Source of the DNA: Escherichia coli
Lineage (GTDB): Bacteria; Pseudomonadota; Gammaproteobacteria; Enterobacterales; Enterobacteriaceae
Assembly (NCBI RefSeq): GCF_044324875.1
Contig: NZ_CP172185.1
Length of the DNA stretch: 64,000 bases
Direction: 5' to 3' (one strand)
A program made the translations under genes and the position numbers. Below the pieces are notes generated by a model that saw nothing but the letters and a program-made list of their open reading frames with translations, made no database searches and was not told the DNA's origin. Positions 1-54,410 of this stretch are shown one piece after another; the stretch's first letter is position 1, and every line of letters begins with the position of its first letter.

Positions 1-111
1 GCCCCTGTATATTCCGGCTCTCTGATAATGTGGTCGGATGTGTTGATTAAATAGTTTGTGCGAAAAATGCACCTGTAACCATCAGTTAACAACGGATATA
101 CAGGGGGGACC

Positions 112-282
112 ATGAATGATAAGGGGGTGCCGTTTGATGTGCTCCTGCAAAAGCTGAATGCTGCACGCGCCGCAAGGGAACGTGAGCGCATGAGTAATAA
201 CCCTGTCCCTCCTGAATTACCTCGCCCTGAACATTTTCCGCTTGAGGATTTCATCAGGGGACGAATCCGAACAAAACGATAA
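112..282 (+). CDS. hypothetical small protein (56 aa) in mobile island; C-terminal motif FPLEDFI shared with ORF 526..720
   Basis: ATG at 112, stop TAA at 280-282, translated by hand; below the 60-aa cutoff of the ORF track; no family recognised. Confidence 0.25.
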   Translation: MNDKGVPFDVLLQKLNAARAARERERMSNNPVPPELPRPEHFPLEDFIRGRIRTKR

Positions 283-525
283 CCGCCGCCGTGATATGAG
301 GCATCACGACGCAATGCATTACAGGTGAGCACCATGAACAAATCCATATTATCCCCCACAGTTCTGGACGTAAACACAAAGCAGCGACAGATATTATTAC
401 GCGCCGTCATTAAAGCCAGACACGAGAAATTAAACCAAATCTTAAGATAAGATACGCCGCTACCGCTGTAAGTCTTCATCAGAAACAGAAAACGCCAGAG
501 CAGATGAGCACGGAGGTAACTCTTT

Positions 526-720
526 ATGAAAATAAACGAATCAGGGGAAATTACCGAAGCCAGCGTGGTACGCCAGCGGAGGCGGGAACGACGGGTACGG
601 CCCCCCGCGCCATCCGATAATTTCCCGCTTGAGCGCTTCATCAGTGAACGGCCCCGCATACGCTGGAACGGCACAACCCCATACCCCGAGGAGAGACAGA
701 CAAAAAACAAACAGCGATGA
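526..720 (+). CDS. hypothetical small protein (64 aa), paralog-like to ORF 112..282 (motif FPLERFI)
   Basis: ORF track; shares a ~15-aa C-terminal motif and similar nucleotide sequence with the 112..282 ORF. Confidence 0.3.
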   Translation: MKINESGEITEASVVRQRRRERRVRPPAPSDNFPLERFISERPRIRWNGTTPYPEERQTKNKQR

Positions 721-999
721 TGAAATCTGGAGGCCAATACCATCACCCAGCCAGTCGGGGATTGCTGGCGGGCTTCCTGTTCGCTGGTGGCCCCGATGGT
801 AATAACGCGTGGTTGTGCTGTGCTCAGGGCGATAAAACGCCAGATGTATTTATTCAGGTTGTGCGGGTCCCGCCCTTGCGGGTGTGTGGTATGATTTAAC
901 ATAGCTACCTCGATACGCTTTCTATCGTTGGTGGTTAGAAGCCCCGTTACTGCTCCAACAGTGCGGGGTTTCGTCGTTTCTGCACCTTTCATCAACAAG

Positions 1000-1051
1000 G
1001 TGTTGAACACCAATTTAAGCCTAGGTGTTAAACACGCCAAGTGTTGAACAC
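1000..1051. promoter_or_regulatory. three closely spaced 11-bp palindromes GTGTT-N-AACAC (1000-1010, 1025-1035, 1041-1051), putative operator array
   Basis: Direct reading: gtgttgaacac / gtgttaaacac / gtgttgaacac, each a perfect inverted repeat around one central base, ~50 bp upstream of the small ORF starting at 1101. Confidence 0.5.
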
Positions 1052-1100
1052 TTATTTTTTTCCTGCATACTGCATTTGTTTTTTGTAAGGGGTACACAAC

Positions 1101-1280
1101 ATGGCGACAAAAGCAGTAAACGCAAAATCACAAACAGTTGCGGCAAGGGTTCCGCATGAAGTTATGAACAATGTTGAGGCGGTAAAAATGCCTGGTGAAA
1201 GTACAGGGCAGTTTGTAACAGCAGCATTAAAGCGAGAAGTTGAATACCGCCAGCGCCGCAAGGCCAAAGAATCAGAATAA
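1101..1280 (+). CDS. hypothetical small basic protein (59 aa) in mobile island
   Basis: ATG 1101, TAA 1278-1280, hand translation MATKAVNAKSQTVAARVPHEV...; immediately downstream of the palindrome array. Confidence 0.3.
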   Translation: MATKAVNAKSQTVAARVPHEVMNNVEAVKMPGESTGQFVTAALKREVEYRQRRKAKESE

Positions 1281-1328
1281 TCACTATCAGCGCCGTGGTG
1301 TGAGGTACTGCGGCGCATTGTTTTAAAG

Positions 1329-1529
1329 GTGATAATTATGAATAACCAGGAACTACAAAATAAAGCATTATCAATTATCATGCGCCAGCGTGAGAAAACC
1401 CGCAGGGAAATAAATAAGGCATTAACCCGCACTGAAAATCTTAAAGTTCCTGATAAGTTCGCCCTTGATCCTTTTGTCGAGAAATACCCTCGGCGCTTAA
1501 AAGCAAACAAAAACCGCCCACCTGGCTGA
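1329..1529 (+). CDS. hypothetical small protein (66 aa) in mobile island
   Basis: ORF track; followed by a hairpin plus T-tract at 1621-1648. Confidence 0.3.
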   Translation: MIIMNNQELQNKALSIIMRQREKTRREINKALTRTENLKVPDKFALDPFVEKYPRRLKANKNRPPG

Positions 1530-1620
1530 CAATCCACCAGCAAGCCACCACACTGGACACATTGCCCACCAGCCAGCAAATCGCTATGATGTTCGGGCTT
1601 ATGTTTAGTGTTTTCCCATT

Positions 1621-1650
1621 GGCGACCGCCCCCGGTCGCCTTTGTTTTAT
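1621..1650 (+). terminator. putative intrinsic terminator (stem ggcgaccg / cggtcgcc, then TTTGTTTT)
   Basis: 8-bp GC-rich inverted repeat with 4-nt loop followed by a T-rich tract. Confidence 0.55.
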
Positions 1651-1667
1651 GTGTCATATACTCCCCT

Positions 1668-1877
1668 TTACGCTGCCTTGCCTGAATTAATGCGATCCCG
1701 GCTTTTAACCCATTCCATAACCTCGGACAGCAGCCAACCTACAGAACGCCCACCAAGATTACGGCGAGACGGAAAGCTCCCTTTTTTCTCCAGTTCGTAG
1801 CGTGTAGTGCGACACACTCCAGTTAACTTACGACATTCATCCTCACGGATTACGCGATCTTCATTTATTTCACGCAT
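1668..1877 (-). CDS. alpA: AlpA-family phage/island transcriptional regulator or excisionase-like protein
   Basis: Translation ...IREDECRKLTGVCRTTRYELEKKGSFPSRRNLGGRSVGWLLSEVMEWV matches the AlpA/Xis-type HTH pattern; start chosen at the internal Met (MREINED), the ORF track extends to 1964. Confidence 0.7.
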   Translation of the reverse strand: MREINEDRVIREDECRKLTGVCRTTRYELEKKGSFPSRRNLGGRSVGWLLSEVMEWVKSRDRINSGKAA

Positions 1878-2296
1878 ACAAAAACCTACATAAAAATTAC
1901 GTATATAAACTTTTCTCTTAGCTGTAGATATATGAGATCGGATATTACTTAGATTCTTTTTCACCTCTTAAATTAAAAACACAACCATGCTAAAGGCTTT
2001 GTTCGCTAAGGTTCGTAGAAGCTCGTTAGTGTTTAAAATCGTGTCACGAGTTTTTAAGCGACGCAACAAAAAATGTCGTCATTTGGCATGTCACCTGAAT
2101 TACCTCATTAAAAACAAATAGATAAACCATCAGATGTTGGAACAATCAAGAAACAGAGAATAAGAACTCAGAAGAAGACATTTCAATTTTTTTCGATAGT
2201 TGACACATATAAAGAGAAGATATTTGCAGATATTCCCCGATATTCTAAGATCTATTCACGGCTGTAATCTCTTAAAGAAAAAACAGCCGTAATTTG

Positions 2297-3535
2297 TCAA
2301 GAATTTTGGGGGTAAATTCGCGGGGTCATAACAACGATTTTTTCATCATTGTTCTGGAGAAGCTCGAGACGGTCTACCCATAGATTAAGAGCGTCACGCT
2401 TTGCATCGAGATAACGGGAGTGGTTATAGACGCGTTGCATTCCTGGCATCTGGTGGGCAGTAAGCTGTTCGACAATATGCGGATCCACGCCTAAATCGTT
2501 CAGCATGGTTGTAAATGTGTGCCGGATGTCGTGCAACGACCAGGGGGCTTGATTAATGCGTCTGTGTGCCGTTCTTCCGTACTCTGCTACGGATGATTGC
2601 CCTTTCAGTTCTCCAAGCAATAAGCCCGTGTGCCTGTTCTGCTCCACCAGCTTCATGACGAACGGCAAGATCGCTTCCGGTATTGGCCTGAATATTGCTA
2701 CCTTCGTTTTGCTGTGTTCTTTCGGCACAGTCCAGAGCATTTCTTTAAAATCCCATTCCCGAACCTCGGAGCGTCTTAGCTCAGTGGTACGGCATCCGAA
2801 GACAATCAGAAGGCGAATTAAAGCGCTGTAGTACGGCGGGAAAATTTTTTCATCCAGTGCGCGGAGTAGCTCGCCAAGCTCCTTGTTTGTTAGCACTCGC
2901 TCGCTTATTTCTGCTTTTTTTCCCACATCACCTACGACCATATCATCAAGAACGTTACTGACGGCGTAGCGACGTTTACGGCAGTACTTAAGCGCCTGTT
3001 TGCATACCTGCAACAAAAAGCCGGCTGATACCGGATTACGCTTAGCAAGCTGGTCAAAACAGGCCAGCCAGTGGCGTAGCTCGCATTTATCCAGCGGCAT
3101 AGCACCAATCTGGCTGATTATGTGCTTATTGATACGGCTTTTCAGTGATTCGTGGTCAGTGCGCTTTTCCTTCGCATACGACTCAAGCCAGTAAGTGAGC
3201 GCGTCCTTAACCGTCACGGGGGCTAACGCTTCCTGCACTGTGTGATTAAGCTCATGGCGTGGATTTTTCCCCTCCGCCAGCCAGGCGCGACACTGTGCCG
3301 CTTTTTCCCTGGCTGCTTTCAGGCTCAGATCGGGATAGTTGCCCAGTCTCAGGCGTTCCGGTGATACCTGCCTGCCAGTTCCGGCCCTGTAAGTGAAATA
3401 CCAGGTTAACAGGCCGCTGGTGGAATGTCTTACGCTAAGATTGCCACCGTCATTAAAAAAGGCGTTTTTTGTGGTTGGTGATCCGCTTAATTTTCGTAAA
3501 AGAGTGTCGCTAAGTCTATGAATTGCGCTGCTCAT
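2297..3535 (-). CDS. int: tyrosine-type site-specific recombinase/integrase (P4-like, N-terminal arm-binding domain)
   Basis: 412-aa ORF; C-terminal catalytic region with HDIRHTF ... HQMPGMQRVYNHSRY (R-H-R-Y type signature); N-terminal DUF4102-like arm-binding region. Confidence 0.9.
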   Translation of the reverse strand: MSSAIHRLSDTLLRKLSGSPTTKNAFFNDGGNLSVRHSTSGLLTWYFTYRAGTGRQVSPERLRLGNYPDLSLKAAREKAAQCRAWLAEGKNPRHELNHTVQEALAPVTVKDALTYWLESYAKEKRTDHESLKSRINKHIISQIGAMPLDKCELRHWLACFDQLAKRNPVSAGFLLQVCKQALKYCRKRRYAVSNVLDDMVVGDVGKKAEISERVLTNKELGELLRALDEKIFPPYYSALIRLLIVFGCRTTELRRSEVREWDFKEMLWTVPKEHSKTKVAIFRPIPEAILPFVMKLVEQNRHTGLLLGELKGQSSVAEYGRTAHRRINQAPWSLHDIRHTFTTMLNDLGVDPHIVEQLTAHQMPGMQRVYNHSRYLDAKRDALNLWVDRLELLQNNDEKIVVMTPRIYPQNS

Positions 3536-3938
3536 GTTTCGCGTTTCCGGTCATCAAAATTAACTACACCATTGACTACACCGTGCATCGTACAAGGGCA
3601 AACCGTGACGAACAAGAGCGAACAAGTAAAACAAAATTTTCCTTTATAATCATAGCGATGAATGCACACAAAACACTACCACGAACACCCGCGAACACTA
3701 GATGATAAATAACTATCATCTATCGTTGGCATCAGGACATCTGTCACATTCCTGTCAATAGCGTTAACTGCTTCAAATTTTTGATTCATACCTGCCCCCT
3801 GGCCCCTGTCAAATGCTTGACGGCTCGCCCTAATTCTCTAAATTGTATTTCTAGAGTTGGCGAGGTTTTGAACAGCCCCCTCTCTGACCCCGGTTTATTC
3901 CATCTTACTTGTATAAGATTTGCGAAGGATGTCGAAGC

Positions 3939-52562: not shown

Positions 52563-53189
52563 ATGATTACGCTGTGGGGTCGGAATAATTCAACCAACGT
52601 AAAAAAAGTATTGCTGACGCTCGAAGAACTGGAACTACCTTATGAGCAAATTCTCGCGGGCCGTGAGTTTGGGATAAATCACGATGCTGATTTTCTGGCG
52701 ATGAACCCTAACGGGCTGGTGCCGTTGTTGCGTGACGACGAAAGTGATCTCATTCTTTGGGAATCAAACGCCATTGTCCGCTATCTGGCGGCACAGTACG
52801 GGCAAAAACGCCTGTGGATCGACTCACCGGCACGTCGTGCGGAAGCAGAAAAATGGATGGACTGGGCAAACCAGACGCTCAGTAATGCTCATCGCGGGAT
52901 CCTGATGGGATTAGTCAGAACACCACCGGAAGAGCGCGATCAGGCCGCCATTGATGCCAGTTGTAAAGAGTGCGACGCCCTGTTTGCCCTGCTCGATGCG
53001 GAACTGGCAAAAGTAAAATGGTTCTCTGGCGACGAGTTTGGTGTGGGCGATATCGCTATCGCTCCGTTCATCTACAATTTGTTTAACGTTGGCCTGACCT
53101 GGACACCGCGTCCAAATCTGCAACGCTGGTATCAGCAACTCACTGAACGCCCCGCAGTGCGCAAAGTGGTGATGATTCCCGTTAGCTAA
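52563..53189 (+). CDS. gstB: glutathione S-transferase GstB (YliJ)
   Basis: 208 aa from [10 protein letters not shown]; GST fold. Confidence 0.9.
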
Positions 53190-54300
53190 TTGCGTGGGCT
53201 AACTTTAAGTAATTCCCCACTGGACTCGTCGGTGAGAACGTATAAATAACCGTCGGGTCCAGTGCGAACATCACGAATTCGCTGCCCTCTGTCCGTTAAA
53301 ATACGGCCATCTTCTGTCACTTTGTCGCCGTTGACGCTCATCACAATGACATCTTTATCTTTCAGCGCGCCAATAAATAATTTTTGCTGCCACTGGGGGA
53401 ATTTATCGCTGTTATAGAAGGCCATGCCGCTCACGGCGGGCGAATCTTTCCAGTAAAAAACAGGTTGCTCGGTCCCGGCGACGATCTCCCCTTTCGCTTC
53501 CGGTATCTTAAAGCCTGAATAGTTGATTCCCCAGGTTGCCAGCGGCCAGCCGTAGTTTTTGCCTTTTTGCGGGATATTAATTTCATCGCCACCGCGCGGG
53601 CCATGTTCATTCAGCCATAGTGCATTACTCCACGGATTCATCGCCATTCCTTGCGGATTACGAATGCCATAAGACCAGATCTCGGCGCGCGCACCGGATT
53701 CCTTTATAAAAGGATTATCATCCGGGATTTGCCCTGGTCGGTCAGACGCACCAGTTTGCCCTGTAATTTATCCAGATCCTGCGCCGTCGGGCGCTGATTG
53801 TTTTCGCCCAGAGCAATAAAAAGATAACCTTTACCGTCGAATACCAGCCGCCCGCCAAAATGGTTGCCGGTAGACAGTTTTGGCATCTGGCGAAAGACGG
53901 TGCGGAAGTCGGTCACCTTTGAGAGATCATCACTTAAGCGGCCATAACCCACAGCAGTTCCGGCTTTGCCATCATCGCCAACTTCGGAATAACTTAACCA
54001 GATGCGGCGAGACTGAGCAAAATCAGGCGCTAAAACCACATCCAGCAGGCCACCCTGCCCGTGCGCCCAAACTTCCGGCACTCCGGAAAGCGGCGCAGAT
54101 AATCCTTTTCCTGCTTGCCAGTGACGCAACTCGCCGCCGCGCAGAGTGATTAACATACCGTGATTGTCGGGTAAAAAGGCCAGCGCCCAGGGATGGTCGA
54201 GTTTGTCCTGCAGTACTTCGACATTTACCGTTGCAGGAGCCGCCCAGAGAGCGGAAGAAAGACAAATAAGGGGCACAAGGAAAAAGGATTGTCGATGCAT
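53186..54300 (-). pseudogene. yliI: yliI (soluble aldose sugar dehydrogenase, PQQ-type beta-propeller) split by a 1-bp frameshift near 53700
   Basis: Two consecutive minus-strand ORFs (53704..54300, 53186..53647) in different frames; hand translation across the junction shows frame A ...LTDQGKSRMIILL* while the adjacent frame continues ...QIPDDNPFIKESGARAEIWSYGIRNPQGMAMNPW...; consistent with loss of one G in ggc-gaa-atc. Confidence 0.7.
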
Positions 54301-54410
54301 AACGCCTCCGGATTGACTCTGGCTTAAAGCGTAGTCAGTGGAGGAGATAACAAATTCATTTTTACAAAAACTTAAACATGAAGGGGGAGACGCTTTCTCC
54401 CCCTTAGTTT

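Follow-up and report, generated by a model that had tools for sequence, protein, structure and literature searches.

Background

Only two PQQ-dependent dehydrogenases are known in Escherichia coli (PMC13088180). YliI, also called Asd, is a soluble aldose sugar dehydrogenase, a periplasmic, PQQ-dependent enzyme of broad specificity and low abundance (10.1101/2022.06.07.495086; PMC13088180). It belongs to the same family of six-bladed β-propeller quinoproteins as the soluble glucose dehydrogenase sGDH (GdhB) of Acinetobacter calcoaceticus, whose structure (PDB 1C9U) matches YliI residues 25-264 with E = 1.3e-22.

We describe here an allele of yliI interrupted by the loss of a single base in a 64,000-nucleotide stretch of E. 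coli DNA (the whole stretch analysed, called the window below). We consider the frameshift to be real and evolutionarily very recent, a loss-of-function mutation private to this strain, with a probability of roughly 0.86.

The yliI locus and its neighbourhood

The yliI (asd) pseudogene occupies window positions 53186..54300 on the minus strand and measures 1115 nt, compared with 1116 nt for the intact gene. In the ORF listing of the window it is split into two minus-strand ORFs, both of which carry Pfam GSDH matches. The features concerned are:

53704..54300, minus strand: N-terminal ORF of 198 codons, ending in ...LTDQGKSRMIILL followed by the stop
53704-53706, minus strand: premature TAA stop of yliI
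53730..53731, minus strand: deletion junction, with the G of GAA (Glu191) absent; yliI nucleotide 571
53186..53728, minus strand: out-of-frame C-terminal remainder of yliI, Ile192-Asn371 and the stop; contains the RNPQG motif
53186..53647, minus strand: second yliI ORF, in a frame open from 53767; reads ...GQIPDDNPFIKESGARAEIWSYGIRNPQGMAMNPW...

An earlier note on this DNA had called the gene yliI, and this is upheld by synteny, by approximately 99% identity with the crystallised protein (PDB 2G8S) and by a full-length Pfam GSDH domain. The two strings that it gave for the ends of the frames agree with LTDQGKSRMIILL and GQIPDDNPFIKESGARAEIWSYGIRNPQGMAMNPW as read from the ORFs, and its claim that the ORFs together have the length of YliI is borne out by the 1115-nt span, one nucleotide short of the intact gene. 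The gene lies between bssR and gstB in the order bssR-yliI-gstB-dacC, as in annotated genomes, with rimO also nearby; gstB is convergent with yliI and overlaps its stop codon by 4 nt. The neighbourhood is K-12-type.

The lesion

The region surrounding the gene (window 53100-54400, 1301 bp) was compared by megablast with 5,426 complete E. coli genomes. All but two gave a match (5,424 of 5,426), and the best matches span 1302 bases against 1301 in the query. A base-by-base comparison with E. coli 7/2 (NZ_CP023820) over the 1301 bp shows 670 identical positions, one missing G and 631 further identical positions. The missing base is exactly the G whose loss from ggc-gaa-atc had been proposed from the letters alone: the codons GGC GAA ATC become GGC AAA TCC, and CAGGGCGAAATCC in the intact gene becomes CAGGGCAAATCC in the window. 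This G sits between a C and an A, outside any homopolymer, and its deletion is the sole difference, over the 1301 bp, from intact alleles found in many strains. Restoring it in silico yields a 1116-nt yliI ORF of 371 codons whose product is identical to WP_000555050.1. The earlier note was therefore right about the frameshift, while the range in which it advised inspecting the reads (53690..53710) is that of the TAA stop (53704-53706); the base was lost between 53731 and 53730.

Consequences for the YliI protein

The repaired protein aligns with PDB 2G8S over residues 21-370 with two substitutions (approximately 99% identity, E = 9e-244) and contains one complete GSDH domain (PF07995, residues 34-366, 1.5e-134, model positions 1-332 of 332). 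In the window the frameshift falls at codon 191 of 371, mid-way through this single β-propeller domain, and a stop follows eight codons later, so that no uninterrupted frame for a complete six-bladed propeller is present. The 198-codon ORF comprises a putative signal peptide and native residues 1-190, then eight out-of-frame residues (KSRMIILL) and the stop. Its N-terminus, MHRQSFFLVPLICLSSALWA/APA, is hydrophobic, and alignment with the crystallised chain begins at residue 21; the fragment also retains the NHFGGR segment (146-151) and roughly the first half of the propeller. The reading frame is lost for RNPQG (residues 214-218, part of IRNPQG at 213-218) and for all that follows this motif.

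Since IRNPQG comes after the frameshift, PQQ- and Ca2+-dependent aldose oxidation is expected, from the sequence, to be absent. The catalytic histidine and the PQQ/Ca2+ ligands presumably fall on different fragments, by analogy with the Acinetobacter enzyme. The C-terminal remainder has its first ATG codons at 53647 and 53641. Initiation there could at most produce a C-terminal piece, which would have no signal peptide and would remain cytoplasmic. From the position of the break in the middle of the GSDH domain, we infer that the allele is null. The locus is a pseudogene of the known GSDH family and not a functional member: homology and synteny are both present, and the intact frame is missing.

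YliI could still be made if the frameshift were bypassed by programmed ribosomal frameshifting or represented one state of a phase-variable switch. Ribosomes slipping by -1 after the deletion and before the stop would indeed recover the frame, and we found no positive evidence of this. Moreover, the 24-nt out-of-frame stretch preceding the TAA (codons 191-198) contains no slippery heptamer of the type X XXY YYZ, there is no simple-sequence tract at the deletion site, and the gene is uninterrupted at this point in approximately 5,400 other genomes, which argues against a conserved recoding signal. With neither a slippery heptamer nor a repeat tract at the site, we rejected recoding and phase variation as extremely improbable.

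A real mutation or an error

The earlier note left the choice between gene decay and sequencing error. A single-base indel is a classic assembly artefact, and if the missing G were an error of sequencing, assembly or polishing, the yliI gene of the strain would actually be intact. A Dcm site, CCAGG (window 53732-53736, minus strand), also ends 3 nt before the deleted G. This is a context that gives rise to systematic nanopore basecalling errors, and it would matter only for a source assembly made purely from nanopore reads. An error would, in addition, look like a deletion present in no complete genome, as is the case here.

Several observations weigh in the other direction. The exact 198-amino-acid truncated product is encoded in the Logan assembly of SRR31072984, on a contig of 16,710 bp that is reported in two samples. 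This contig is 100% identical to the window across the 14,183 bp read, deletion included. Its first base corresponds to window position 57886, 27 nt inside an IS1 copy at 57860-58627, and its last base, judging from its length, is expected at approximately 41177, about 28 nt inside a second IS1 copy at 40437-41204. Contig ends lying k-1 bases within flanking repeats are the signature of short-read de Bruijn-graph assembly (k≈31), and it is from these ends that the sequencing platform of SRR31072984 was deduced. As the contig ends inside both IS1 copies, the genome from which it derives has the same two insertions, and as it carries the deletion, independently assembled reads of the same lineage support the loss of the G. 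The genome containing the window may itself have been assembled or polished with SRR31072984, in which case this is read support rather than a second isolate. A nanopore error due to Dcm context would not recur in a short-read assembly, and the missing G is, as noted, outside any homopolymer.

We also searched for other indels by comparing the window with NZ_AP022003, the best collinear complete genome (approximately 99% identity, approximately 55 kb aligned). No frame-breaking indel other than the yliI deletion can be ascribed to the window, setting aside two 1-bp gaps where alignment blocks end, which were treated as edge effects; one of these, at window 3736, lies within the annotated 75-nt yljB CDS of the reference. 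Another gap is a frameshift belonging to the reference and is annotated as such by RefSeq. JNEC-KY178, the closest genome for the 16.6-kb segment bounded by the IS1 copies (99.76%), differs from the window there by 39 substitutions and by the yliI deletion, the one gap in the alignment. Poor assembly quality in general was thus rejected as a cause, indels being otherwise absent from coding sequence and the assembly not generally error-prone over the approximately 55 kb. Taken with the Logan assembly and the sequence context, this favours a real mutation, and we consider an error improbable.

Rarity and age of the allele

The deleted form occurs in none of 5,403 complete E. coli genomes searched with an 80-base query centred on the deletion (no match of at least 99% identity to the deleted form), which answers the suggestion in the earlier note that related isolates be checked for the same frameshift. 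A junction-spanning 36-mer (CTGACCGACCAGGGCAAATCCCGGATGATAATCCTT) has no exact match in 100,044 species-representative genomes and none in JGI metagenome contigs, and the truncated product is found on one contig among approximately 15 billion proteins. A literature search for yliI as a known pseudogene returned nothing relevant. The pseudogene carries no secondary mutations, from which it follows that the event is very recent.

The same observations would suit a real deletion that arose during laboratory culture of the sequenced stock instead of in a natural population: secondary mutations are lacking, the allele is missing from all other genomes and metagenomes searched, and it was found only in the one contig reported in two samples. 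Nothing distinguishes such an origin from a recent natural mutation, and we know of no selective advantage in culture of losing yliI. We consider a culture origin rather unlikely, although clearly less so than an error, and retain a natural, strain-private mutation as the preferred reading.

A possible mutational origin

The sequence flanking the deletion contains two copies of a 9-nt string:

53755..53763, minus strand: upstream copy of CAGGGCAAA (Gln180-Gly181-Lys182), a possible template
53728..53736, minus strand: downstream copy of CAGGGCAAA, created by the deletion; wild type CAGGGC-G-AAA (Gln189-Gly190-Glu191)

Loss of the G makes the downstream site an exact 9-nt copy of the string located 27 nt upstream. 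We scored each of the 1116 possible single-base deletions of intact yliI by the longest junction-spanning string that recurs within 50 nt. With 9 nt, the deletion seen in the window scores higher than any other (rank 1 of 1116; six others reach 8 nt), in a statistic that was computed after the repeat had been noticed.

Repeat completion of this type is a hint, not proof, that the deletion had a templated misalignment origin. In such a scheme, the nascent strand would transiently misalign on the upstream quasi-repeat (CAGGGCAAA against CAGGGC-G-AAA) and then realign, with the loss of one G (nucleotide 571, codon Glu191). However the base was lost, translation leaves the frame after Gly190, adds eight wrong residues and stops, and the truncated product, without the half of the propeller that carries RNPQG, would provide no active enzyme. 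If the templated origin holds, it speaks for a biological event rather than a random read error. A wider interpretation, that this is a natural frameshift templated by the quasi-repeat, or that adaptation or relaxed selection in a clinical lineage accounts for the loss of YliI along with that of nfsA and dgcI/pdeI through IS1, is tentative: we see it as possible and on the doubtful side.

Organism and other features of the window

Every exact protein look-up from the window named Escherichia coli, and no complete RefSeq genome is closer than approximately 99.2% over 24 kb. A Shigella origin, suspected because the window has two IS1 copies in 64 kb and matches even the best complete E. coli genome at only approximately 99% identity, was rejected: the exact proteins named E. 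coli, and the stretches without a match consist of an integrase element and a sulfatase/PTS islet and not of ISs. Strain ECCNB12-2 (NZ_CP033635) was considered as a close relative, as it shares the integrase junction, but it is rearranged at aqpZ and is uninformative for the yliI region.

The IS1 copy at 40437-41204 (768 bp) is flanked by a 9-bp target duplication, GTTCGGCGG, and interrupts nfsA approximately 70 nt short of its 3' end. The nitroreductase NfsA is thereby truncated, the ORF at 41183..41860 running into the IS. Disruption of nfsA is a classic route to nitrofuran resistance. The other copy (57860-58627) is identical to the first, in inverted orientation, with no target duplication seen. 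It replaces approximately 1.97 kb of NZ_AP022003, so that dgcI (yliF) loses its 5' part and pdeI (yliE) its 3' part; both of these c-di-GMP genes are inactivated by the IS1-associated deletion.

Window positions 1-3701 correspond to an integrase-bearing mobile element or the end of a prophage, with a 412-amino-acid tyrosine recombinase at 2297..3535 (minus strand). It adjoins yljB/cspD at the point where clpS-clpA would normally come next, and this junction is found in only 5 of the 5,426 complete E. coli genomes. The window yielded no tRNA gene. Between artJ and rlmC there is a 3.5-kb insert (29118-32633) encoding a sulfatase (493 amino acids) and a PTS IIC transporter (447 amino acids), which is absent from the nearest collinear genome and common elsewhere in E. 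coli. Finally, potH differs in length at its 5' end by 9 bp, in frame (36089-36098; 317 against 314 codons), which appears as a gap in the comparison with NZ_AP022003; the window allele is a common one, present in more than 1000 contigs.

Significance

The yliI lesion is an ordinary strain-private pseudogene of a known gene, with nothing new except the allele itself. The locus should be annotated as a yliI pseudogene in this strain, and has little importance beyond that. Of the two PQQ-dependent dehydrogenases known in E. coli, the strain is expected to be missing one. To our knowledge, E. coli makes no PQQ; together with the low abundance of YliI, this suggests that the loss is plausibly near-neutral. 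The lesion could serve as a lineage marker, and the deletion, in completing a repeat, as a small illustration of templated frameshift mutation.

Comparison with known systems

The closest described system is E. coli YliI/Asd itself (2G8S; PF07995). The window gene is at the same locus, in the same synteny, and its DNA is identical to that of intact alleles but for one base. Whereas the described gene has a whole frame, that of the window copy breaks off at codon 191, and in-frame translation can give no more than half of the domain, the N-terminal one. The A. calcoaceticus sGDH, with a chain of 454 amino acids, is a distant homologue and was used only as a guide, by analogy, for placing the active-site residues. 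The nearest parallel for the lesion is provided by ordinary E. coli frameshift pseudogenes, in which a non-essential accessory enzyme is likewise disrupted by a single-base indel; the yliI allele of the window differs from these only in that its deletion completes a local direct repeat of 9 nt.
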